Source: a virus
Lineage: Duplodnaviria > Caudoviricetes
Strand: one strand, 5' to 3'
DNA: 64,000 nt
IMG/VR virus record: IMGVR_UViG_3300043429_000757
Location: 1,022-65,021 of that record
Below the pieces are notes generated by a model. That model saw only the letters and a list, made by a program, of their open reading frames with translations. It was not told the origin of the DNA and searched no databases. This document shows positions 1 to 64,000 of the stretch, in pieces (within the stretch, counting starts at the first letter, position 1; each line of letters begins with the position of its first letter). The translations under genes were made by a program, and so were the position numbers.

Positions 1-188
1 GCCTGGTCGGATAGCATCCGGTCGGCCGTATTAATCGCGTCGACCCGGTCGGGCGTGAAATATTCCGAAACCAGGTTTTCGACCTGGTCGATTAATTGAA
101 CGCGATATTCGGAATATTCCGCCGACCAGGTAACGCGAAATCGGCCGACTCCGGGAAAAGACCCGGCATATACCAGGCGCCGGCTCAT
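1..188 (-). CDS. Early hypothetical protein, runs off window start (MSRRLVYAGSFPGVGRFRVTWSAEYSEYRVQL...)
   Basis: Hand-translated; ATG at 188 overlaps the DUF932 stop (ATGA); frame open to position 1; not in ORF track. Confidence 0.7.
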   Translation of the reverse strand, partial: MSRRLVYAGSFPGVGRFRVTWSAEYSEYRVQLIDQVENLVSEYFTPDRVDAINTADRMLSDQ

Positions 189-1282
189 GCCACCACCTCG
201 ACCAGGTCCAACAGGCCGCCGGCCTGGGTTTCGAATTCGACCCGGTCGGACTGCCAGGGGATCGACCTGGCATATGCGGTGGCGCCGGTCACCGCGTCCC
301 ACACGGTTTCGATAGGCCGGCCTTCGTCGAGCATATGGGCATGTTGCACGCGTGCGGCCACGCGTGGCCCAAACCGATTGGCCAGGAACTTATCGACCTT
401 GTCGATTTTGCTGGCCTGGGCGCCGCGCAAGACCCCGGATATATTGGACGCGCTGGCGCGGCTGTATTCCAACAGGGCCGGGGTAACCTGGTCGATAAAC
501 TTATCCGGCGCGCTGGCGGTATGCCGGATGCTGATTTCATCCAATTCGTGCGCGCCCCAAACAATACGGTTTGCGCAAACAAAATCAAACAGGAAGGTTT
601 TGACCCGCAGCGACCCGGCGCCGGTTTCGCTATTGGTCACGAAGAACCCGCGCGCAAGCTCGCCGGCTTTACCGTCACGCCGACCCGGCAGTTCTATGCG
701 GTTGATTTCATCAGCCAGGAAGATAAAGCAATCCCTGTCGCCGGCATATAACGTGGTGTTCGCCCTGGTGACCTGGTCGAGCGCCTTACCCCAGGTGCCA
801 GGGACGCGCCAGTCACCGGTTACGCCATCGCCAAAGCGGTCCATCAGGGCCGCGACTACGTCCCCGTCCCAAATGCGGCCATAGTTCGGGCCCGTCACGG
901 CGCGCAGCTCGGACACGCCATTGCGGGACAACAGGACGCCGATATCCTTCGCCTCCCGCTCGACCTGAAAACCGTAATTCAGGCAGTCGGCAGCCAGCGG
1001 GGCCGGCAGCTGCCGCAGGTAAGCGCCTGGCGCGCCGACCAGGTTTGCGGCCTGGCCCATGGCCCAGTGCGTGGGCGCATAGCCGTGGCCGTTGGGGCCT
1101 TCGATCAACAGGCCCCGATTGTCGTCAGTCGGGACGGCGCGCAGACGGCGGCTGCTGACCACGGCCGCGCGGCTGATGGCGCGGCGCGTTTCCATGGCGG
1201 CATGCATCTCCGGAAGGGAAACAAAGCGCTCTTCCTCAGGACGGGTGGCCCACTGGGTGTTGGCCTGCATAAGTGTTGTCAT
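185..1282 (-). CDS. DUF932-family protein
   Basis: FFVTNSETGAGSL...CANRIVW...IRHT motif typical of DUF932; AGAAAG RBS and sigma70-like promoter upstream. Confidence 0.75.
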   Translation of the reverse strand: MTTLMQANTQWATRPEEERFVSLPEMHAAMETRRAISRAAVVSSRRLRAVPTDDNRGLLIEGPNGHGYAPTHWAMGQAANLVGAPGAYLRQLPAPLAADCLNYGFQVEREAKDIGVLLSRNGVSELRAVTGPNYGRIWDGDVVAALMDRFGDGVTGDWRVPGTWGKALDQVTRANTTLYAGDRDCFIFLADEINRIELPGRRDGKAGELARGFFVTNSETGAGSLRVKTFLFDFVCANRIVWGAHELDEISIRHTASAPDKFIDQVTPALLEYSRASASNISGVLRGAQASKIDKVDKFLANRFGPRVAARVQHAHMLDEGRPIETVWDAVTGATAYARSIPWQSDRVEFETQAGGLLDLVEVVA

Positions 1283-1335
1283 CTTGAACTCTCTTTCTAA
1301 CTTTCTAGGAAACCGGGAAACCGTCCCGGCGGCGG

Positions 1336-1373
1336 TGTTTGCATTCTACATGCAAACAGGGACGGGCCGTCAA
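1336..1373 (-). promoter_or_regulatory. Sigma70-like promoter TTGACG-N19-TAGAAT with palindrome TGTTTGCAT-N5-ATGCAAACA over the -10
   Basis: Read directly upstream of DUF932 gene. Confidence 0.6.
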
Positions 1374-1585
1374 GCGACCCGAGGATCGTCGAGCATGTCG
1401 CGCGCCCACTGGCGGTATCTCGCGAACAGCTCCGGGAAAGCTTCCAACAGGCGCGCCTTGTTGTCACTGTCGGCGCGATAGTAGGCCACGCCGATCGCTG
1501 CAGCAAAGCCGCCGCCCACTTTTTCCATAGCCATTGCCGCGCGCCAGTTCCAGGTGGCCAGCTCTTGATCTTGCTGGTCGGTCAT
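1370..1585 (-). CDS. Small early hypothetical protein (GGGF...AYYRAD..N...LLEAFPE)
   Basis: 71-aa ORF, coupled to upstream ORF; motif common in phage early regions. Confidence 0.75.
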   Translation of the reverse strand: MTDQQDQELATWNWRAAMAMEKVGGGFAAAIGVAYYRADSDNKARLLEAFPELFARYRQWARDMLDDPRVA

Positions 1586-1809
1586 ACCGTGGCCTCCATG
1601 TGGTCGAGCGCATCGATGATCCCCTCGGCGCAGTTATAGATCGCGACCGGGCTTATCCAGGCGCGCGAGTCATCCTCAGGCCGGCCGGCCGCGACTATGT
1701 CGCTGCAATACTGGCGCACCGCCTCAAGGACCAGGGCCTGGGTCAAGGGGCCGCCGGGATTCATCACCATCAGATGGGTGATTTTCTGCACGTTGTCTCT
1801 GCGCCGCAT
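1582..1809 (-). CDS. Small early hypothetical protein
   Basis: 75-aa ORF in tightly packed operon. Confidence 0.65.
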   Translation of the reverse strand: MRRRDNVQKITHLMVMNPGGPLTQALVLEAVRQYCSDIVAAGRPEDDSRAWISPVAIYNCAEGIIDALDHMEATV

Positions 1810-1810
1810 G

Positions 1811-2284
1811 TCAGGCCTCCCGGATGTTGAACATGGTGTCGGACAGGTAGTCGCGGATTTTCCCGTTCAGGTCGATCGCGTCCGTCAGGCGATCGACACT
1901 GATCTCATCGGCCAGGTCGGACAGGTCGACCTCGCTGGCCAGGTCGGCATAGTCCAGGACCTCGGACCAGTCGACATTACTGATCAGGTCGGACGGGCTC
2001 AGCTCAGCGGCCAAGCTGGCCAGGTTGACGCCCTCGCCAATTGTCCGCAGTTGGGCGGGGATCAGCTCGCCGGCCAGCTCTGCCAGGTTGACGTGCGCGG
2101 CCAGTTGGCGCATCTCATCATCGCTGAAAATCACCCGCTGCAGTTGCGGCGTCAGGTCAAACGCGCGCGCCTCAAGCGCGGCCAACCTGGCGGCCAGGGG
2201 CGCCAAACGCTGCTCGACCGCGGCCTGGACCGCGGACTCAAATGCCACCTGCAAGGCGGCCACGATAGGGTTCGTTTCGGACAT
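1811..2284 (-). CDS. Acidic protein with about 9-aa [VI]-D/N-L-x-x-L-A-x-E repeats
   Basis: Start moved to MSETNP (2284) behind AGAAAGAGAGAAAG; repeats VNLAELAGE, VNLASLAAE, LDYADLASE, VDLSDLADE. Confidence 0.75.
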   Translation of the reverse strand: MSETNPIVAALQVAFESAVQAAVEQRLAPLAARLAALEARAFDLTPQLQRVIFSDDEMRQLAAHVNLAELAGELIPAQLRTIGEGVNLASLAAELSPSDLISNVDWSEVLDYADLASEVDLSDLADEISVDRLTDAIDLNGKIRDYLSDTMFNIREA

Positions 2285-2337
2285 GTCTTTCTCTCTTTCT
2301 AAGTTGCAGGCCTTGCGGGATGCTTGGCCTGATCGGG

Positions 2338-2368
2338 ATTCTACATCACAACTATCAACTGGTGTCAA
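2338..2368 (-). promoter_or_regulatory. Sigma70-like promoter TTGACA-N19-TAGAAT
   Basis: Perfect -35 and the same ATGTAGAAT -10 context as the promoter at 1336-1373. Confidence 0.6.
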
Positions 2369-2517
2369 CTATCCCCGCCAACAATCCTGTGAAACAGCCA
2401 AAGCCAGAACAGGCGCAGGGCGAGCCCCCGCTGCGTGTCCGGGACCACTTCGGGCTCCGCCGGCTGACTGTTGGCGATCATCTGCTTTCTGACTTTCTTG
2501 CGTGTGGTCCGGTTCAC
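2365..2517 (-). CDS. Small hypothetical protein with hydrophobic C-terminus
   Basis: GTG start overlapping the upstream stop (GTGA). Confidence 0.5.
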   Translation of the reverse strand: MNRTTRKKVRKQMIANSQPAEPEVVPDTQRGLALRLFWLWLFHRIVGGDS

Positions 2518-2888
2518 CCTGCCGGCACGTAAAGGGACTGCCTGGTGGTCAGGACCAGGTCGCGCATAGACACCCAATCCTCATGCGTCAGCGTGCCCAA
2601 AGCCATCAGCACCAGGTGCATTTTGTGCGCCATCTCGGCCCGATATCCAGGGCCATCGTTCGGGTCTTCCAGGTCCCGCAGGTTTTCCATCAGCTCGGGG
2701 TTCATCCACTGGCGCTCGGCGTCCTGGTAAATTTGCAGAGACACTGAGGTGATGATGTCTTCCAGCCGATAGCCGGTCTGGCGACCGACCCGATTGCGGA
2801 TTGGCGCCGGCCAGGACTCGACTACCAGGCGGACGCCGTTGGCGGTCGTGTGAACCCTGGACACGGTTGGGTACTCTACGTGTTTCAT
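2514..2888 (-). CDS. Hypothetical early protein
   Basis: 124-aa ORF with TAGAAAGGTAGAAAGAG RBS. Confidence 0.7.
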   Translation of the reverse strand: MKHVEYPTVSRVHTTANGVRLVVESWPAPIRNRVGRQTGYRLEDIITSVSLQIYQDAERQWMNPELMENLRDLEDPNDGPGYRAEMAHKMHLVLMALGTLTHEDWVSMRDLVLTTRQSLYVPAG

Positions 2889-2930
2889 CTCTTTCTACCT
2901 TTCTATGGTTACCTGGTCATCCAGGCAGGG

Positions 2931-2962
2931 ACACTATAGCATAGTGTTTTTACGATCGTCAA
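2931..2962 (-). promoter_or_regulatory. Sigma70-like promoter TTGACG-N18-TATAGT with palindrome ACACTAT-N3-ATAGTGT over the -10
   Basis: Read directly; extended -10 (TGc). Confidence 0.6.
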
Positions 2963-3375
2963 CCCAGCATCGCGGCGCGCAATTCGGCCCAGGATATCCC
3001 CGTCCAAGGCCAGCGCGCCATAGGCGGCGTGTCGATTCCCATGCGCACCAGGTCCAGGGCCTGCTCCCCCGCAAACAGCAGCAGCTCCGACTTGTGGGCA
3101 TGGGCAGTGCCGGGCGGGAAATACTGGACCAGGATGTAGGTCGGGCAGCGCAGGTCTGCGTGCTTGACATGGAAGGCCACCTGGTGCGGAGACAGGGCGA
3201 TCTTGCGCCCACGCTTGACCACCTTGAGTTCGACCATCACGAACTCCCCATGCGGGAAGGCGACCAGGCAGTCCGGGATGCCCAGGTTCACCCTGGATTC
3301 AATCCGGGTGAAATGGCAATTTGGGACGTTGTCTTTCAGGCGCTTGTACAGGTTCGCTTCGGGCTTCGTTGCCAT
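2959..3375 (-). CDS. PD-(D/E)XK nuclease, Holliday-junction resolvase / VRR-NUC-like
   Basis: E...RIE...GIPD...VELK...LSPHQVAFH signature. Confidence 0.8.
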   Translation of the reverse strand: MATKPEANLYKRLKDNVPNCHFTRIESRVNLGIPDCLVAFPHGEFVMVELKVVKRGRKIALSPHQVAFHVKHADLRCPTYILVQYFPPGTAHAHKSELLLFAGEQALDLVRMGIDTPPMARWPWTGISWAELRAAMLG

Positions 3376-3973
3376 CGTCTTTTTCCTCTTCAGGCTCTTC
3401 CTCGATCTGCCTGGGCGTCACGTCCACAATGGGCCCGGCCTGGCCGCCGTACAGGCGCTTGATCTCGTCAAGCTTACGCATGACCTCTTCCTTGGACATG
3501 CTATCGATCGTCCCGTGCCTGATCTCCTTGCGGTCGATGTAGATCGTGCCCAGGGCCTGACCACGGCGATACTCTGCCTGAACGGCCGCGCCGTACGCGC
3601 CGGCAGCCAGCGCCTGGTCCCGGATGACCTGGAGGTCGCGCATGTGCCGCTCAAAGGTGGTGGCGTACTTTTCGCCCAGCTCCCGGCGGCGTTCCTGGAT
3701 GGCAGCCACGATGTGGGGGCTCTTGTCAGGGTCGGTCAGCTCCCGGGCCCGGTTCTTTGCCCAGATTTCGCTGTACCCGGCGCGGATGGCTGCCTCCTTA
3801 AGGGTCACGTGTCCATCGCCGGCCACGAACTCCTCAACGAACTTCCACTCCTGCGGTGTCAGCACCCGGGGTTTGTGGGGCTTGACCGGCGCGGTGATCC
3901 GAGCCTCGACCCGCTGGTCGATTCCCCCCAAGCTCTTGCCGGCCAAGAACTTCTCATCCTTGTACGTACCCAT
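3299..3973 (-). CDS. terS: Terminase small subunit
   Basis: LTPQEWKFVEEF...EAAIRAGYS..A...A.EL HTH signature of Terminase_2-like TerS; start moved to MGTYKD. Confidence 0.85.
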   Translation of the reverse strand: MGTYKDEKFLAGKSLGGIDQRVEARITAPVKPHKPRVLTPQEWKFVEEFVAGDGHVTLKEAAIRAGYSEIWAKNRARELTDPDKSPHIVAAIQERRRELGEKYATTFERHMRDLQVIRDQALAAGAYGAAVQAEYRRGQALGTIYIDRKEIRHGTIDSMSKEEVMRKLDEIKRLYGGQAGPIVDVTPRQIEEEPEEEKDDGNEARSEPVQAPERQRPKLPFHPD

Positions 3974-4188
3974 CAGGCGACCCTCCACAGCCGCCAGCCC
4001 TCGCCGTACTTGCGGATGGTGAACCGCACCCCAGGGTGCCGCTTGGCGTACATGTAGGCCGCGCTGCGCAGGTTCTTGATCCAGTCCGCGTCCAGCACCA
4101 GGAAGCTGTCGCCGACCGCCATGTCAGGGAAGGGGTAGACCTGCCGTTGGCGGTCGTCAGGCAGGGGCACGTGTCTCTCGATTCTCAT
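3973..4188 (-). CDS. Small putative DNA-binding protein (YPFPDMAVGDSF...GWRLWRV)
   Basis: Motif widespread in phages; start at MRIERH. Confidence 0.75.
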   Translation of the reverse strand: MRIERHVPLPDDRQRQVYPFPDMAVGDSFLVLDADWIKNLRSAAYMYAKRHPGVRFTIRKYGEGWRLWRVA

Positions 4189-4261
4189 GGTCCGATTGTG
4201 CAACACTTCCACAGGGTAACGCAACCGCCCGTCCGGCCCTTCCAGGGCAAATTCAGGGTTC

Positions 4262-4471
4262 CTATAGACTTTTTTTGACCAATGTATGTTTTTTTTTTTT
4301 CAAAAAGTCATCGCGCGCGCATTTTATGTGAAATTACATCCTTGAACACACTGTAATGTCCTGTACACGTCTAACCTATTGATTTCATTAACTTCTTACA
4401 CCATTACGTCTATTACGTCATTTTCCAAAAAAAAAAAAACAAAACACATGAATTTGAAAAAAAGTCTATAG
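4262..4471. other. AT-rich element bounded by perfect 15-bp inverted repeats; candidate replication origin
   Basis: CTATAGACTTTTTTT (4262-4276) / AAAAAAAGTCTATAG (4457-4471); inner poly-T/poly-A arms; repeated TTAC/GTAA and 2x ATTACGTC; largest internal non-coding gap. Confidence 0.6.
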
Positions 4472-4516
4472 AAACACCGAAATCTCGGCCACAGCCCCGG
4501 TCCGTGGCCCTCGGCC

Positions 4517-4532
4517 CTGTATGCCTGTACAG
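4517..4532. promoter_or_regulatory. LexA (SOS) box-like site CTGTATGCCTGTACAG
   Basis: Matches the beta/gamma-proteobacterial CTGT-N8-ACAG consensus; intergenic. Confidence 0.45.
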
Positions 4533-4575
4533 CCCACCAAGGGTAAACCCCCACAAACCGTCCCCCATGCCCCTC

Positions 4576-4791
4576 CTACTGCAACTCCCCCGGCTCGCAC
4601 CATTCCCCTGTCATCAGGCGTGCTGCCACTGACATGGGGAGGGTGTCCGCCACTTCGATGGCGGTGATGGCCTTGTCGCCGAAGCAGGGCCCGACGAAGG
4701 CGTACTTGGTGTTGCCGGCGGTGATGATGAGCAGTTGGACCGTGGGCCGTGGCACGAGGCCCTCGATGAGTCCTTCGAACGCCGGGGTCAC
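4576..4791 (-). CDS. Hypothetical protein
   Basis: 71-aa ORF coupled to upstream gene. Confidence 0.6.
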   Translation of the reverse strand: MTPAFEGLIEGLVPRPTVQLLIITAGNTKYAFVGPCFGDKAITAIEVADTLPMSVAARLMTGEWCEPGELQ

Positions 4792-5036
4792 TTGAGGACC
4801 TCTTCCCAGCCTGGCCCTGTCTTGCCTTCTTTGATGCCCAGATCGAGGGACAGGCGCTCGACTTCGTCTTCCAGCCGGCGCTTTTGGACTCTGAGTTGGT
4901 GGACCTGGTTGGCCAGGTGTTCCATGGAGTCGTTTTGGACCTCGATGCGGCGGCGCAGGGAGGCGATGTACTCCTTGGTCTCCAGGCAGTCGATGGGGCG
5001 TGGTGGATTTTCTGTGGAAAATTCAGCGGGTCGCAT
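4788..5036 (-). CDS. Coiled-coil hypothetical protein
   Basis: 82 aa, heptad pattern, AGGAG RBS. Confidence 0.7.
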   Translation of the reverse strand: MRPAEFSTENPPRPIDCLETKEYIASLRRRIEVQNDSMEHLANQVHQLRVQKRRLEDEVERLSLDLGIKEGKTGPGWEEVLK

Positions 5037-5038
5037 GT

Positions 5039-5251
5039 TCAGCTCCTTTTGCTGCGAAGTTCTCTGTCCCTGGCCAGGGCCAGCATGAGGCGGTTGGGGT
5101 ATTTGTTGGCGGCCATGGCGCGGCTGATGTAAATCTCCACGGTCCGTTTGGAGATGCCCAGTTTACGGGCCACGAGGTCGGTCTGTCCAAACTCGCAGAT
5201 GGCGTCCAGGACTGCCTGCTCGCGTGGGGTTAAGTTCAGTGGTTTGGGCAC
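5039..5251 (-). CDS. LuxR/GerE-type HTH regulator
   Basis: LTPREQAVL...VARKLGISKRTVEIYISR. Confidence 0.85.
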   Translation of the reverse strand: MPKPLNLTPREQAVLDAICEFGQTDLVARKLGISKRTVEIYISRAMAANKYPNRLMLALARDRELRSKRS

Positions 5252-5260
5252 GTGGGTCTT

Positions 5261-5449
5261 TCACAGTTTGATGCCGCGCAGTTGGCGGCAGCGCTCGCGT
5301 TCGGCGGGGGTGATGTCTGGGCTGATCTCGGCGACGGGGCACAGGTGGTCCCTGGGCGGCCGTGGTCCGTGGCTCGCGAGCCAGACGATGCTGGCCATGG
5401 TGCCGAGCATGATAGTGGCCGCGGCGATGGCGAGCAAGACGGCTTTCAT
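5261..5449 (-). CDS. Small membrane/secreted protein
   Basis: Hydrophobic N-terminus; C.VAEISPD...RERCR. Confidence 0.7.
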   Translation of the reverse strand: MKAVLLAIAAATIMLGTMASIVWLASHGPRPPRDHLCPVAEISPDITPAERERCRQLRGIKL

Positions 5450-5676
5450 GCTTGCCCCCTTGCTCTCATTCTGAGTTTGGTCTGGCCCTCCGCAGGCAAC
5501 AGTTCTTCTGCCATGACATTTCTGCCGCCAATCACATAGCTGACCCTGCCGTATCTGTTCATGGTTACCTTTTCAACAGTTCCGATGAAGGGTTCTCCAG
5601 CCCATGTGAACGGGTAAACGGGCACAACGTCTCCGACCTGGCAGTGAACCTTCTTGTAATCAATGCCGTGTCTCAT
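5446..5676 (-). CDS. Small SH3/KOW-like hypothetical protein
   Basis: Start moved to MRHGID; VGDVV...GTVEKV...VSYVI. Confidence 0.6.
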   Translation of the reverse strand: MRHGIDYKKVHCQVGDVVPVYPFTWAGEPFIGTVEKVTMNRYGRVSYVIGGRNVMAEELLPAEGQTKLRMRARGQA

Positions 5677-5768
5677 GCCTGCCCTCTTGCGCGGATGTAT
5701 GAGATTGTTATGTGCTGCCCAACGAACATTCCAGCCAAGAAACACAAAAGTAAAGTCCACTCATCCAT
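5673..5768 (-). CDS. 31-aa membrane peptide (MDEWTLLLCFLAGMFVG...)
   Basis: Overlaps both neighbours; hydrophobic. Confidence 0.5.
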   Translation of the reverse strand: MDEWTLLLCFLAGMFVGQHITISYIRARGQA

Positions 5769-6021
5769 GATTCGTCCCCCTTGCTCGGATGGCGTCTGCG
5801 CAGTCTTGGGCCGCCTCAGCATAGGTTGTATATGGCGGCGTGACTTGAAACAATTCTTCACACACCTTCGCACACGCCTCACGCTCGTCATCAATCAGCT
5901 TCTGTATCTTGCTCCCATACATCGACACAACAATTGAAGGCAAGCCTATCTCCATCGCCCGCTCGTACAGTTTGATGCGCTCAGGGGCCACAGTGACGGT
6001 AACCTCATCTGTATGTTTCAT
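5761..6021 (-). CDS. Hypothetical protein (EREACAKVC...CADAIRARG family)
   Basis: Very common phage accessory motif. Confidence 0.7.
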   Translation of the reverse strand: MKHTDEVTVTVAPERIKLYERAMEIGLPSIVVSMYGSKIQKLIDDEREACAKVCEELFQVTPPYTTYAEAAQDCADAIRARGTNHG

Positions 6022-6262
6022 AGAAGCCCTCCTTGAGCAACATGGCATCTGAGTATTCGTGCTTGAACCACTTCCACATCTCGGCGCGTTCTTCTTTGAC
6101 CTGGGCCCATAGGATCAAACAGTACCAACTCCATCGTTCGTCGTTCCAGTCGTAAGCCTTTTCAGACAACAAGCGGTGAGACGTAATGGAGACGTTCATG
6201 CTTAGGTAACTGAGCAGCGCCTGTAGCTTGTCCTTGTGGGTTCTCATGCGTTTTTGGTTCAT
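6005..6262 (-). CDS. Trp-rich hypothetical protein
   Basis: Start at MNQKRM coupled to upstream stop. Confidence 0.6.
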
Positions 6263-6495
6263 GCTTCCCCCTTTGCCGCAGCAATTGCAGCATAGGCTTT
6301 GTCCATTGCGTCTGTCCACCCGATCACCGCCATTCCGGGGCCGTCTTCAATTTCAACAAGGCGACTCAACGCCTCCAGTAATTGCGCGTTGACCGCATGA
6401 AGTCGGCGCAGTTCGGCTGCGGCTGCTCGGCGTGGCGGATATTCTTTTTCTTCCAAGGCATCAGCCAGCCGCAGGGCTTCTGGTTGTTGGGTCAT
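6259..6495 (-). CDS. Hypothetical protein ([11 protein letters not shown]...AAAELRRLH family)
   Basis: Common phage accessory motif. Confidence 0.75.
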
Positions 6496-6496
6496 G

Positions 6497-6709
6497 TCAG
6501 TACTCCACCTTTTCGATCTTGAATTCGTGCTCGCAGTGTTCGCAGGTCACTTCCCAGTCCTTGAGTCTTTCCCATCGGTTGTTAAAAATGTGGCCTGAGA
6601 TGTCGTGCTCTGTGTCGTGCTGTGGCTCAGACAAGTCGTTGGACTCATCGCACTTTGGGCAGGTAACGTACAGGCTCCAGTCCAGTTGCGCCGTGGGTGG
6701 CCTAGTCAT
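6497..6709 (-). CDS. Zinc-ribbon protein
   Basis: CPKC...CEHC. Confidence 0.75.
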
Positions 6710-7023
6710 TTCTTTTCTCCTATGCCGTGCGCGGCCTCGATGGCGCGAGCGATGTCGTATGCATCGTTGATTGATGCCTCACCCATTTCGTCGCAGTACC
6801 GATTCCAGATGTCGTCTATCTGCTCCTCCGTCAGCGGCTGGCGCTGTGCTGCGGGTGGGGTGGTGTAGATGGCGTGCTGTTCGTATTTCTCACCTTGCGC
6901 CTGCTCTTTGACTCGATATTCAAGCCACCTGTCGGACGCGCCCTTGCTGGCATGAATTGAAAGCCACTTACGCCTTCCGACAACCTTTACTGCCCAAGCC
7001 ACTGGTTCAAAACTGTTATTCAT
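6706..7023 (-). CDS. EPVAW...PLTEEQI family accessory protein
   Basis: EPVAW, YTTPP, PLTEEQI, ARAIEAAHGI. Confidence 0.75.
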   Translation of the reverse strand: MNNSFEPVAWAVKVVGRRKWLSIHASKGASDRWLEYRVKEQAQGEKYEQHAIYTTPPAAQRQPLTEEQIDDIWNRYCDEMGEASINDAYDIARAIEAAHGIGEKK

Positions 7024-61508: not shown

Positions 61509-62969
61509 TCAGTAGTACTCCGGGACAAGCCCTTCTTGACTGGGCTCCTCGTCCGGCGCGTCAGTGGCCAAGGTCACGAAGTTGCCCTGGCGAAAGCGCA
61601 TCAGCGCCATGGTCGTCACGTCCACCATGTCGTCGTTGTCGCCGTGCGGAAACGACGCGCATTCCTCCACCAGCTCCTCGGCCCAGTCCGTATCCGGCGC
61701 CCAGACAATCCCCGACTCCAGCACCGGCGCCACCGCGTTGGCCCGGGCGACCTTGTCCGTCCCCGTCTTGCGCCCGCCAGGCGAGTACATCGTCACCGGG
61801 ATGTCCATCCGCCGCAGCTCCTGCTGCAGCGGCGTTCCCGTCGCCTTGGCCTCGATCAGCAGGTTGTCAGGCTGCCAGTGGTCGTACTGCTCCTTGGCCA
61901 CTTTTTTAAGCTCCGGGAAATCCCACCTGCCCCGCTTGACGTCGAGCAAGATGATGTTGGCCCCCGAGTCCTCGTTCAGGTAAAACACGCCCCAGGTCGC
62001 GATGACAGAGAAGTCAGCCGTCTCCTTCTTCGAGTACGCCGTGTCCAAGGTCTGAATGATGTAGTTCACCACCGGTGGATCGTCATGCTGCCAGACCTTC
62101 CACCACTCCCGCTTCAAGATCGCGCCCTCGTCGTTCGTGGGCTGCTGCTGGTACATCGCGTTCCACTTCTGCACCGACAACGACGCCTTGACCGCCAGCA
62201 ACTCGTCCAGCTTCCAGAACTCAGGCCATAAGGGTTTACCACTAGGCAAGATGGCCGGGAACTCAATCACCTCCCACTTGTCAGCGTTGTGGCTCGACTG
62301 CGCCTTGATCAGCCGGGCCGTCATGTCCTTCGTGCCCCAGCGCGTCATCACAATCACGATCGCCCCGCCCGGCTGCAAACGAGTACGCGGACCCCCCTGG
62401 TACCACTCCCAGGCATTGTCCAAAGCCAGGTCCGACAAGGCATCCTGCTCCGAATGCGGATCGTCAATCACCAGCACGTCCGCACCCCGCCCGGTCATCG
62501 CACCGCCAACACCGACCGCAAAGTACTCGCCACCCTTGTTCGTGTCCCACCGACCAGCAGCCTTTGAATCCTGCTTCAAGCTCACCTCAGGAAAAAGCTC
62601 CTTGTACGCAGGCTGGTCCATCAGGTCCCTGACCTTTCGACCAAAGCGCACGGCAAGCTCTCCGTTGTGGGTTGCTTCAATGGCCTTGGTCCGCGGAGCG
62701 CGGCCCATGAGAAACGCCGGCAGCAGGTAGGACGCGAACTCCGACTTCGTGTGCCGGGGCGGCATGTTGATGATCAGGCGCTTGAGCGTGCCATTGGCAA
62801 TTCGGTCAAAGGCCGCGGCCATCTTCTCATGGTGCGCGCCAAGGATCGCCTCTGGCCAGACGTACCGCACAAAGTCGATGAAGTGAGTCCTTGCTCTGTC
62901 CTGAGCTTCAAGTTGCGAGAGCCGCAGTTCAAGGCGCAGTCGCTCCGCGTCGACGTCGTCAGGGATCAT
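61509..62969 (-). CDS. terL: Terminase large subunit
   Basis: NMPPRHTKS, TGRGAD..VIDDP, MTRW, DTAYS...D.S, IEAKATG, FP.G..DD.VD. Confidence 0.97.
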   Translation of the reverse strand: MIPDDVDAERLRLELRLSQLEAQDRARTHFIDFVRYVWPEAILGAHHEKMAAAFDRIANGTLKRLIINMPPRHTKSEFASYLLPAFLMGRAPRTKAIEATHNGELAVRFGRKVRDLMDQPAYKELFPEVSLKQDSKAAGRWDTNKGGEYFAVGVGGAMTGRGADVLVIDDPHSEQDALSDLALDNAWEWYQGGPRTRLQPGGAIVIVMTRWGTKDMTARLIKAQSSHNADKWEVIEFPAILPSGKPLWPEFWKLDELLAVKASLSVQKWNAMYQQQPTNDEGAILKREWWKVWQHDDPPVVNYIIQTLDTAYSKKETADFSVIATWGVFYLNEDSGANIILLDVKRGRWDFPELKKVAKEQYDHWQPDNLLIEAKATGTPLQQELRRMDIPVTMYSPGGRKTGTDKVARANAVAPVLESGIVWAPDTDWAEELVEECASFPHGDNDDMVDVTTMALMRFRQGNFVTLATDAPDEEPSQEGLVPEYY

Positions 62970-63298
62970 GATTGTTTCACGTGAAGAAGTTTGTCATCCA
63001 AATGCCGCTGCTGGTGACATTTGCGGCATAGCCAGGTGATCTGCAAGGGCCTACTGTAGTCCTCGTGATGCTTCTGGGCAACAGGGTCACGGCAGACGGA
63101 GCACGGTTCGGGGGCGATCTTGCCCCGGCGCTGGTACACGTTGGCGTACGAGCGGGCGATCGATCGCTGCTTTTGACCCGGTTCGAGGTCCGCGTGCCGC
63201 GGGCGATGGGCCCTGGCGTACGCAGCATGGCACGCGCGGCAATACCGCTGGGGCAGGCGGTCATTGGGCAAGCCGCATTTCGAGCAGGTTGTTTTCAT
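62966..63298 (-). CDS. Zn-binding HNH-like protein coupled to terL
   Basis: CxxC x3; HHEDYSRPL.ITWLCRKCH...H. Confidence 0.75.
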   Translation of the reverse strand: MKTTCSKCGLPNDRLPQRYCRACHAAYARAHRPRHADLEPGQKQRSIARSYANVYQRRGKIAPEPCSVCRDPVAQKHHEDYSRPLQITWLCRKCHQQRHLDDKLLHVKQS

Positions 63299-63751
63299 GG
63301 AACGAATTGTATTTCAACTGCGAAAAATTTTTGGGCCAAATCGAGGTTTTTTAGAAGGGGGTGGTTTTCATGGAACAAGAAAACTGTTTCGCGGCCCACT
63401 GACAGCGCAAAACCGGGCCAAGGCCGGCGCAGCCTGGGCAGCGGCCCGTTTTTTGGACCCTGGGTCCGGGTGGGGGGTCCGGGCGCCGCGGTCCGCGGAC
63501 CAGGCGCCGGGCGCCGCGGCCACCAGGCGCGCACCAGGTAACGCGGCCACCTGGTCGGCGGCCTGGTCGACCAGGTGCACGGGCCGCGGACCTGGTTTGC
63601 ATGTACATGCAAACATGGGCCACCAGCTGCAGGACCAGGCGCGCCGGCCTGGTCGACCTGGTGCGAGATACCAGGCGCGCGGACCAGGCGCCAGGTGGCC
63701 GTGGCTCACGGCCTGGCACGGCCGGCGGCCGGCCTGGTGGGTTAATGGGGC
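63299..63751. other. Non-coding probable genome-end/packaging region: A/T-tract segment followed by GC-rich, palindrome- and CCWGG-rich segment
   Basis: AAAAATTTTT, G-runs, 2x GTTTTCATGGAAC (63291, 63364), palindromes CCTGGTCGACCAGG (63562-63575) and GTTTGCATGTACATGCAAAC (63595-63614). Confidence 0.55.
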
Positions 63752-64000
63752 TCGACCAGGTGGGCCGGCTGCAGCTCGACCAGGTGGTGACCAGGACGTC
63801 GACCAGGTGGGCCGGCTGCAGCTCGACCAGGTGGTGACCAGGACGTCGACCAGGTGGGCCGGCTGCAGCTCGACCAGGTGGTGACCAGGACGTCGACCAG
63901 GTGGGCCGGCTGCAGCTCGACCAGGTGGTGACCAGGACGTCGACCAGGTGGGCCGGCTGCAGCTCGACCAGGTGGTGACCAGGACGTCGACCAGGTGGGC
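63752..64000. repeat. Perfect 47-bp tandem repeat, at least 5.3 copies, cut by window end
   Basis: Unit TCGACCAGGTGGGCCGGCTGCAGCTCGACCAGGTGGTGACCAGGACG starting 63752, 63799, 63846, 63893, 63940, 63987. Confidence 0.95.

Follow-up and report, generated by a model that had tools for sequence, protein, structure and literature searches.

The first lines of this stretch raise the question of why genes of a phage should be written in so restricted a set of DNA words. An earlier note on the window, by which we mean the whole stretch of 64,000 nucleotides that was analysed (bases 1022–65021 of a 65,021-bp record), had counted 17 CCWGG in positions 1–802 and only 6 GAG/CTC in positions 1–781, and both counts were reproduced by program (9 CCAGG and 8 CCTGG; 2 GAG and 4 CTC, identical for 1–802). 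The other 800-nt bins of the window held 0–16 CCWGG (mostly 0–9) and 10–39 GAG/CTC, and the last bin (63201–64000) held 34 CCWGG and 10 GAG/CTC. The anomaly in 1–802 is real, but these coordinates are only the edge of a larger island, part of which lies beyond position 1 and part at the far end of the window. The source phage is podovirus-like, of the HTVC023P type and from fresh water, and appears to be lytic; according to bioRxiv 10.1101/2019.12.14.876532, no known group of marine viruses is more abundant than the HTVC023P-type phages.

The island, a clade-conserved DNA "word island", sits between the small and large terminase genes. It extends from window position 63,400 through a 47-bp tandem array spanning the junction of the record ends, and on through the 1,021 bases preceding the window, to about window position 1,280, and its signal fades by about 3,200, giving a total extent of roughly 3–4 kb. 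It has two parts. One is a control region, non-coding and about 0.9 kb long (an A+T-rich block, a G+C-rich block and the perfect 47-bp tandem array); the other is a set of neighbouring small operons, each behind a host-type promoter-like site, with DUF7227, a 69-aa ORF, DUF932 and three or four more small ORFs. Both its genes and its spacers draw on a few words built around a 13-base palindrome. The "terminal repeat" of the record is the tandem array overlapping itself. In a comparison of four assembled-contig sets of public runs, a 6,808-nt contig spanned the last array unit and the island without differences; array pieces occurred at 2.4–5 times the depth of this contig, which suggests about 3–5 array copies in all, these depths from assembled contigs being uninformative on physical ends. 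The features, in window coordinates, are:

1..188, minus strand: 3' two-thirds of the 69-aa ORF, which starts at 188, overlapping the DUF932 stop, and ends 21 bases before the window (phrog_7884, E 1e-08); 6 CCWGG, one CCAGG-N7-CCTGG dyad among them.
185..1282, minus strand: DUF932-family gene, 365 aa (PF06067, E 6.9e-07; phrog_1362, E 1.6e-42); 3' part (185–802) strongly biased, 5' part GAG/CTC-poor and less CCWGG-rich.
1283..1373, minus strand: promoter-like TTGACG-N19-TAGAAT and DUF932 leader TAGAAAG-T-TAGAAAGAGAG (putative consensus matches from pattern scans), with an imperfect inverted repeat over the promoter-like site and a 5' leader hairpin.
1370..2368, minus strand: three small, putatively early ORFs (71, 75 and 157 aa) preceded by the second promoter-like site (2368) and biased to an intermediate degree (repeated 8-mers at z 3.1–3.4 in this "early upstream" set).
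2514..2962, minus strand: 124-aa ORF (orf124, 2514–2888), with a third promoter-like site at 2962 and a CCTGG-N4-CCAGG dyad in the leader.
2959..3988, minus strand: 138-aa nuclease/helicase-like ORF and small terminase subunit gene (3299–3988) (phrog_2165, phrog_51, Terminase_2); bias almost gone, weak z-scores of the same sign.
61509..63298, minus strand: large terminase gene and 110-aa zinc-ribbon HNH-like gene (Terminase_6C; phrog_2340); ordinary composition, the island boundary on that side.
63299..63400, no strand: A+T-rich block without genes, immediately upstream of the HNH-like gene; sharp island edge (200-nt bins).
63401..63751, no strand: G+C-rich non-coding DNA with dense ACCWGGT-type sites (8–10 CCWGG per 200 nt) and, at 63595–63614, a 20-bp perfect palindrome similar to the inverted repeat over the DUF932 promoter.
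63752..64000, no strand: perfect 47-bp tandem repeats (Tandem Repeats Finder: 5.3 copies, 100% matches), each unit with three ACCAGG-type sites 11–12 and 24 bp apart; the array overruns the record end and goes on in the first 125 bases of the record.

The density of CCWGG is 28.7 per kb in the island (81 sites) compared to 4.8 per kb elsewhere (298 sites). An artefact of codon usage or amino-acid content can be excluded because the deviations, both the CCWGG excess and the GAG/CTC deficit, survive amino-acid-preserving shuffles. The 12 CCWGG in the 3' part of DUF932 compare with 5.9±1.6 when its own synonymous codons were permuted, with 1 of 1000 shuffles reaching 12, and with 4.4±1.7 under the codon usage of 14 large genes; for its 4 GAG/CTC the corresponding expectations were 9.2±1.8 and 20.6±3.4. 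CCWGG was likewise in excess in the 69-aa ORF (6 vs 2.6±1.0) and in the DUF7227 gene just ahead of the window (13 vs 9.0±1.6), where GAG/CTC was also rare (2 vs 6.2±1.6). Among five control genes, DNA polymerase, TerL and orf71 did not deviate, TerS deviated mildly on GAG/CTC, and orf124, a neighbour of the island, had 9 CCWGG against 4.7±1.5. The shift had been described as a gradient inside the DUF932 gene, and this is borne out for CCWGG and for the Glu codons, of which 6 of 9 are GAG in the 5' part, but less so for GAG/CTC, which is depleted gene-wide (6 in the 5' part against 15.7±3.2 expected from genome codon usage) and steps up at the DUF932 start.

The described switch of Glu and Tyr codons to GAA and TAT is equally evident, with GAA in 17 of 20 and TAT in 10 of 13 cases in island genes vs 29% and 23% in reference genes, and AAA is preferred there as well. 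The frequent palindromes that had been listed are present in the sequence, and their excess also goes beyond synonymous shuffles, with 46 palindromic 6-mers in DUF7227 (23.2±3.9 expected) and 71 palindromic 4-mers in the 3' part of DUF932 (54.5±5.4 expected). Repeated 8-mers are in excess in the island genes in both direct (346 vs 128±17, z about 13) and inverted orientation (274 vs 125±18, z 8.5), and 40 of the 62 recurrent coding 8-mers are found in the non-coding part too. The vocabulary is strand-symmetric: z-scores of words and their reverse complements correlate with r 0.71–0.73 in the island vs 0.23–0.58 in ten sets of control genes. The island is poor in many AG/CT words, AGA/TCT included, and the AG/CT dinucleotide odds are 0.61–0.70 compared to 0.98. 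The genes are real, and their bias lies in the DNA itself, at synonymous positions and at some that are not synonymous.

Bare CCWGG, which had been proposed as the word on display, is not the unit, because its flanks are non-random and its dyad arrangements fixed, and its sites are densest in non-coding repeats. The enriched word is a palindrome with the consensus TCGACCWGGTCGA, of which CCWGG is the core. The 81 island sites read G.CGA-CCWGG-TCG.C, with 54–59% agreement per flanking position, while the 298 sites elsewhere show no preference, and 30 of the 37 genome copies of CGACCWGGT fall within the island, that is, within 4.6% of the genome. Leaving the array aside, there are 8 site pairs at a spacing of 12 nt, 7 of them arranged as CCAGG-N7-CCTGG and none in reverse, and six close relatives have 4–7 pairs in the same arrangement vs 0–1 in reverse. 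The palindrome is also arranged as a 16-bp double palindrome, and sites in the array recur at 23–24 bp. Density peaks in the non-coding DNA and the perfect tandem array adjoining the terminase genes, and another 55 or so sites are scattered over some 2 kb of coding sequence; these coding sites follow the palindromic consensus and not the array unit, in which the right halves are GGTGG. RNA structure was rejected as an explanation: summed folding energies of island genes were 1.5–1.75 SD below those of synonymous permutations, with the controls TerS and portal at −3.0 and −2.7 and the 5' part of DUF932 at +0.2 SD. Searches of Rfam gave just two sub-threshold matches, at a terminator hairpin, which were taken as chance.

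The island is common to 25 of 38 related loci. Its signature is retained in 17 relatives (r 0.59–0.89) and in DSL-LC04 (r 0.66), across which backbone G+C ranges from 0.49 to 0.62 and the divergence of the island about equals that of TerL. Compared to the relative L003, 3 of 58 synonymous third positions differ inside CCWGG and 158 of 558 outside; codon-class-matched tests in four relatives pointed in the same direction with modest p values of 0.02–0.26 (classes with at least 8 in-site codons). Outside the sites, synonymous divergence from the closest relative is 0.26–0.30 in the island and 0.10 in TerL, a difference that constraint would not lead one to expect and that agrees with recombination or conversion. 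Conservation of site positions in DUF932 is lost once protein identity is down to about 78%, and the word-carrying tripeptides D-Q-V and D-L-V are lineage-specific, an inserted Gln included. The word itself varies, being GG-CCWGG-CC in the low-G+C subclade and DSL-LC04, of CCSGG/GCGC type in the sister lineage L022, and of AAGCTTG and GCGAGC types at the same place in two pelagiphage relatives. CCWGG is absent from 8,458 nt of L022, where a weaker remainder of the signature is kept, and from the surroundings of DUF932 in L024 and L025, which have 1.4–1.6 per kb outside. That the word changes between lineages and the place is constant fits a co-evolving protein and site, and the CCWGG core shared by subclades with differing flanks could point to a host factor reading CCWGG. 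Gene order is rearranged in relatives, DUF7227 preceding DUF932 in many loci, and DUF7227 is strongly biased whether it lies beside the array or one gene further off.

We tentatively read the island as a homotypic cluster of putative sites for a DNA-binding protein, centred on the control region beside the terminase genes, and put the probability of this at roughly 0.4. The palindromes would then most likely be sites for a sequence-specific, dimeric protein, either of the phage, for instance its small terminase or some early regulator, or of the host; candidates by position are the small terminase, the HNH-like zinc-ribbon protein and a LuxR-type HTH encoded at 5039–5251. Such a protein would first assemble on the tandem array and then cover the early genes that flank it, and the role of the centre could be in packaging, in replication or in shutting off early genes. 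Selection that favours many sites and disfavours competing words would have recoded synonymous positions together with a few residues, and would account for the small vocabulary, the excess of palindromes and the deficit of GAG/CTC and AGA/TCT. However, a binding array alone leaves the general depletion of AG/CT words and the GAA/TAT/AAA preference unexplained, and W and WW signals gave no peak at 10–11.5 bp (island 3.2–4.1, background mean 5.1), hence no sign of wrapping. No ParB_N domain was found in the phage, and profile searches and PDB sequence searches gave no solved or named relatives of the island proteins.

Early expression of the region is plausible because the island has the only three matches in the genome to a sigma-70-like promoter (putative, from a consensus pattern scan). 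In the cultured relative HTVC027P, the genes gp30, gp33 and gp34 between the terminase genes peak early or early-to-middle, according to PMC12753301. The early operons are oriented towards the array, not away from it. It is possible, but in our estimate rather improbable, that the between-terminase region is a "landing pad" encoded in synonymous and a few non-synonymous positions of the first-expressed genes, with a lineage-specific short palindrome dense enough for its cognate protein to coat all of the early region and so to shield or time the DNA, and with the word policed by host restriction. Such a coat might be, for example, a roadblock to translocating nucleases, an early-gene shut-off or an organiser of packaging and replication, and its word would be CCWGG where tolerated and another where CCWGG is cut.

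The binding-site reading has to be weighed against four others. CCWGG is the Dcm/EcoRII motif and the motif of class II DISARM, and the earlier note had proposed that this DNA is the first to enter the cell, purged of host-defence words and possibly displaying CCWGG densely as a host-methylated "self" word. The word-level depletion is indeed real and strand-symmetric, the host-type promoter-like sites and the early between-terminase genes of HTVC027P are in its favour, defence pressure on CCWGG is clear in the clade (L022; L024 and L025 around DUF932), and PMC12455610 reports that in Autographiviridae the sensitivity to Type I restriction is decided by the absence of motifs from the leading region. 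However, the early operons are transcribed towards the array, the enriched word extends beyond CCWGG, the short palindromes on which restriction usually acts are enriched, and L022 retains part of the signature although free of CCWGG; nor was a cytosine-5 or N6/N4 methyltransferase found in the phage (PF00145 and PF01555 absent). The words that the backbone avoids speak against a selection to lack defence target words: CAGCTG occurs 3 times in the rest of the genome vs 22.7 expected, and the island, 4.6% of the genome, has 4 of the 7 genome copies of CAGCTG and 3 of the 20 of CTAG, the opposite of a harder purge. Of an anti-defence strategy written in synonymous sequence, the DNA-level bias beyond shuffles stands, the anti-defence role is hypothetical, palindromes avoided elsewhere are present, and we hold this explanation to be unlikely. 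Concerted evolution, in which frequent short-patch conversion or template switching, near the array and at a recombination hot spot, would spread a few words into adjoining DNA as far as the proteins allow and leave the genic sites functionless, seems to us about as doubtful. It would accommodate the excess of both direct and inverted repeats, the recurrence of coding 8-mers in the non-coding part, the raised synonymous divergence, the rearranged gene order and a bias that fades with distance on one side, but the coding sites match the palindromic consensus and not the array unit, one strict dyad arrangement is kept in relatives, third positions are more conserved inside sites than outside, and the bias of DUF7227 is strong regardless of its distance to the array.

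Vsr-type repair raises CCWGG in E. coli, and a host Dcm/Vsr-type methylase with very-short-patch repair on heteroduplexes could convert CTWGG and CCWAG to CCWGG by biased gene conversion. The ratio of CCWGG to CTWGG+CCWAG, 81:6 in the island vs 298:249 elsewhere, and the CCWGG core common to subclades with different flanks are in its favour; yet the rest of the genome is without the signature (298 CCWGG vs 303 expected), the flanks, the dyads, the other enriched palindromes and the AG/CT deficit are unexplained, no Vsr was found in the phage, and third-position G+C is not raised (0.76–0.79 vs 0.82 in TerL), which makes it an improbable source of the island, less so only than transfer from elsewhere. 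G+C-biased gene conversion was rejected on the same third-position values. A foreign module that retained the composition of its donor is very unlikely. One island edge is sharp, GAG/CTC depletion stops at the DUF932 start, and DUF932 is common on plasmids and integrated elements according to bioRxiv 10.1101/2025.06.20.660599; but the signature is kept across the clade (the 17 relatives and DSL-LC04) despite the range of backbone G+C, and the bias exceeds what codon usage can give. Sharp edges at gene boundaries had been named as a sign of simple horizontal transfer, and the sharp edge falls in non-coding DNA. No close bacterial homologue exists among the 9 bacterial DUF932 loci found, which are from distant phyla and at most 44% identical, and a host origin of DUF932 was rejected.

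The function of the between-terminase control region is not described in the accessible parts of bioRxiv 10.1101/2019.12.14.876532, PMC12753301 and a further paper on HTVC023P-type phages, and titles and abstract openings of work on CCWGG overrepresentation in phages or on DUF932, found with search wordings that were not exhaustive, mention no such island. If a protein does bind, the island would be an unusually clear second code over protein-coding DNA at kilobase scale, under which k-mer diversity drops to half of the value expected for these proteins and residues change. Host restriction specificity, here for CCWGG, can decide which word is usable by such a region. For annotation, composition-based tools would label the island foreign DNA, wrongly.

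Arrays bound by one protein are known from sopC of the F plasmid, the P1 iterons and the 13-bp KorB operators of IncP plasmids. The island resembles them in its perfect, non-coding tandem direct repeats with a short dyad in each and in the dispersed nearby copies of a 13-bp odd-centred palindrome, but differs in the roughly 55 further sites over about 2 kb of coding DNA and in the shift of its whole k-mer vocabulary; moreover, no ParB-type gene was found in this phage, which appears lytic. Packaging and replication sites may lie in phage genes, and the GATC hexamers of the P1 pac site and oriC are clusters of a methylation motif. Here, too, a putative cis-acting-type region beside the terminase genes runs into coding DNA, and a short methylation-target motif is far above chance density; however, the island measures kilobases where theirs measure 100–300 bp, and its motif has specific flanks. 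Nucleoprotein complexes of phi29 p6 coat the genome-end regions with a 24-bp period, p6 reading DNA bendability and not a palindrome. The 23–24 bp recurrence of the array sites is alike by pure analogy, by which a regulatory or replication role of a coated early region is conceivable. With the leading regions of Autographiviridae (PMC12455610) and the first-step-transfer region in the two-step injection of T5 (bioRxiv 10.1101/866236), as far as the accessible parts of these sources describe them, the island shares small genes of unknown function, putative host-type promoters, a word content unlike the rest of the genome and adjoining non-coding repeats, but its signal is mainly an enrichment of words and palindromes, and palindromes that the backbone avoids are present in it.

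The beginning of the window belongs to a real, strong and clade-conserved sequence anomaly, for which the coordinates and the motif given in the earlier note are corrected here. That note described positions 1–802 as saturated with CCWGG and purged of GAG/CTC, and its counts of 17 CCWGG and 6 GAG/CTC (2 GAG and 4 CTC) were exact on recount; elsewhere in the genome the CCWGG density is 4.8 per kb, and 800-nt bins contain 10–39 GAG/CTC. Both deviations persisted in amino-acid-preserving shuffles of the 3′ part of the DUF932 gene, where 12 CCWGG were observed versus 5.9±1.6 when the segment's own synonymous codons were permuted and 4.4±1.7 under the codon usage of 14 large genes, and 4 GAG/CTC versus 9.2±1.8 and 20.6±3.4, respectively. 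The 69-aa ORF and the DUF7227 gene deviated in the same way, and the DNA polymerase, the large terminase (TerL) and orf71 (a 71-aa ORF upstream of DUF932) showed no deviation under these shuffles. The proposed switch of Glu and Tyr codons was borne out (GAA 17 of 20 and TAT 10 of 13, versus 29% and 23% in reference genes), as was the excess of palindromes.

The 65,021-bp virus record, of which the window covers bases 1022–65021, is rated 100% complete in the class 'direct terminal repeats', and nearly all genes are on the minus strand. In minus-strand order, TerL is followed by a 1,460-aa protein, portal, structural genes, DNA polymerase, helicase, primase and small genes, then by the small terminase (TerS), a nuclease-like ORF, four small ORFs and DUF932. 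Ahead of the window, the record's first 1,021 bases (L049) contain DUF7227, a terminator hairpin and the last part of a tandem array. Genes in and next to the anomaly are:

62966–63298, minus strand, HNH-like gene
61509–62969, minus strand, large terminase, directly after the HNH-like gene
3299–3988, minus strand, small terminase
185–1282, minus strand, DUF932 gene
69-aa ORF, minus strand, after DUF932, its end 21 bases before the window

A 138-aa ORF (2959–3375, minus strand) overlaps the end of the TerS gene and matches phage families annotated as 'DNA helicase' and 'endonuclease' (phrog_2165, phrog_93); no Pfam match was found for it. TerL identities of 78% to phage DSL-LC04 and 55–59% to phage 023Pt_psg01 and the Pelagibacter phages HTVC027P and HTVC023P place this phage among the HTVC023P-type podoviruses, whose podovirus morphology is described in bioRxiv 10.1101/2019.12.14.876532.

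The anomaly in 1–802 stands, but its limits do not, as the true island is far larger and crosses the record junction. In its final 800 nt the window has 34 CCWGG, and it closes with perfect 47-bp repeats (5.3 copies, 63752–64000) that extend into bases 1–125 of the record (2.6 copies). Since these repeats cross the junction and contigs from public runs connect the window-end flank with the array and the array with DUF7227, the island is a single piece from 63,400 across the junction to about 1,280, and weaker to about 3,200. Array pieces in assembled contigs had only 2.4–5 times the coverage of the unique contig beside them; the 'direct terminal repeat' is therefore probably the array overlapping itself and not a physical end. 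The terminase-side edge is sharp and within non-coding DNA. On the opposite side GAG/CTC depletion ends at the DUF932 start, and CCWGG enrichment is patchy beyond it (orf124, 9 versus 4.7±1.5 in shuffles).

CCWGG is indeed enriched, but as the core of a longer palindrome and not as a unit in itself. The 81 island sites have the flanks G.CGA|CCWGG|TCG.C, which are lacking at the 298 sites elsewhere; GACCAGG occurs 46 times versus 1.3 predicted from the remaining sequence, and 30 of the 37 genomic copies of CGACCWGGT are inside the island. Sites outside the array are most often 12 nt apart; of the eight pairs so spaced, seven read CCAGG-N7-CCTGG and none is reversed. There are two copies of a 16-bp double palindrome. 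GCCGGC/GGCGCC-like words form a second family, and the depleted words are those with AG/CT (CAGA/TCTG 0 versus 21 expected, AGAG/CTCT 0 versus 15; AG/CT dinucleotide odds 0.61–0.70 versus 0.98). Against synonymous permutations, island genes had 346 direct (128±17) and 274 inverted (125±18) 8-mer repeats and few distinct 8-mers (z −10.9); six control sets drawn from elsewhere in the genome gave direct and inverted z-scores of 0.2–5.2. Deviations of words and their reverse complements correlated at r 0.71–0.73 in the island versus 0.23–0.58 in controls, and from this symmetry the constraint acts on duplex DNA rather than mRNA. RNA folding of the island was not unusual, and no helical periodicity was found in it.

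A genome-wide scan for TTGAC-N17–20-TAnAnT gave three matches, all on the minus strand, preceding orf124, orf157 and DUF932, and DUF7227 has a weaker match. These putative promoters, at consensus level, make the island the probable host-polymerase early region, transcribed towards the array. Searches of the phage for a cytosine-5 or N6/N4 methylase, for Vsr and for ParB came up empty. A purine-rich TAGAAAG-N-TAGAAAGAGA leader directly before the start codon is shared by early genes, among them three of the four just named, and is located at:

window 1285–1307
window 2285–2300
window 2890–2905
892–911 of the bases before the window

The leader is composed of exactly those words that are depleted in island bodies. 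The non-coding region contains, at 63595–63614, a perfect palindrome of 20 bp (GTTTGCAT..ATGCAAAC) that resembles an imperfect one at about 1335–1358 over the DUF932 promoter-like site; the two look like an operator pair. Two identical 25-nt G+C-rich hairpins with A and T runs (151–175 and 954–978 of the bases before the window), placed after DUF7227 and after the 69-aa ORF, are probably bidirectional terminators, and two Rfam sRNA hits below threshold fall on the second. The minus-strand ORF at 5039–5251 encodes a 70-aa LuxR/GerE-type helix-turn-helix protein (PF00196, E 9.7e-09), which may be a phage transcription regulator and counts among the candidates for the DNA-binding protein proposed below.

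Among 38 IMG/VR loci with a DUF932 relative, near-duplicates included, 25 had at least 12 CCWGG per kb around it and two more had 11.7–11.9. The trinucleotide signature correlated with the island in 17 of the relatives with enough flank (r 0.59–0.89) and in DSL-LC04 (r 0.66), and was matched neither in loci L024 and L025 (r 0.15–0.19) nor among six distant DUF932 loci (−0.29 to 0.07). Island G+C in the 17 relatives was 0.58–0.68 versus 0.49–0.62 in flanks; third-position G+C was not raised. CCWGG has been purged in sister phages. Locus L022 has none in 8,458 nt and carries CCSGG- and GCGC-type repeats in the corresponding position, L024 and L025 have none around DUF932 and 1.4–1.6 per kb outside, and L034 has 0–0.6 per kb. 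This purging implies that CCWGG-specific restriction would operate in some hosts of the clade. In the low-G+C subclade and in DSL-LC04 the flanks read GG|CCWGG|CC, and dyads are absent. DUF7227 lies downstream of DUF932 in this phage, L001–L003 and L028, and upstream, still strongly biased, in L004, L006–L021 and others; the order of the module differs within the clade.

Synonymous third-position difference from the closest relative (L003) was 0.26–0.30 in island genes outside sites, 0.10 in TerL and 0.17 in TerS; within CCWGG sites it was 3 of 58. Comparisons with four relatives in which codon classes were matched went in the same direction with modest p values. At a protein identity of about 78%, site positions had turned over. 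Tripeptides D-Q-V and D-L-V, which encode GACCWGGTC, are lineage-specific, anecdotally at three places; CCWGG-poor L024 has L-D-A-V where this phage has L-D-Q-V, a residue absent from distant homologues.

We favour, at a probability of roughly 0.4, the reading that a control region adjoining the terminase genes is surrounded by a homotypic cluster of sites for a putative dimeric DNA-binding protein. This reading draws on a 13-bp palindrome with fixed dyad arrangements that is densest in the perfect tandem array, conserved at synonymous sites, symmetric at duplex level and, in other lineages, exchanged for different words at that place; it leaves unaccounted the general AG/CT-word avoidance and the raised synonymous divergence. 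The earlier proposal, first-entering DNA selected to lack host defence target words and possibly to display a host-methylated self word, seems unlikely, and those of its parts that are open to test fared poorly. The backbone has a palindrome deficit against Markov expectation (CAGCTG 3 versus 22.7, CTCGAG 2 versus 13.8, AGATCT 0 versus 9.2, CTAG 17 versus 51) that reads as the classic restriction-avoidance pattern and is absent from the island; palindromes so avoided (CAGCTG, CTAG) occur in the island, palindromes are enriched there and the word extends beyond CCWGG.

Three further explanations each cover some of the observations and fail on others. Patch conversion, with the repeats as source, is about as doubtful as the defence proposal. 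A repair bias linked to a host methylase seems less probable still. Foreign origin is very improbable, and no close bacterial homologue of DUF932 was found. The remaining probability is assigned to causes outside these readings.

Comparable islands of 1.5 kb, with 0.43–0.50 G+C in genomes of 0.36–0.37, lie between the two terminase genes of two pelagiphages:

3900–5700, HTVC027P (L051)
4900–6900, 023Pt_psg01 (L052)

Each has words of its own (AAGCTTG/GGCTTGA or GCGAGC/GCAAGC), placed close to promoter-like sites and within a gene, and the coding sequence of gp32 is made of the repeats. For the HTVC027P island genes gp33 and gp34, PMC12753301 reports high early-to-middle expression.
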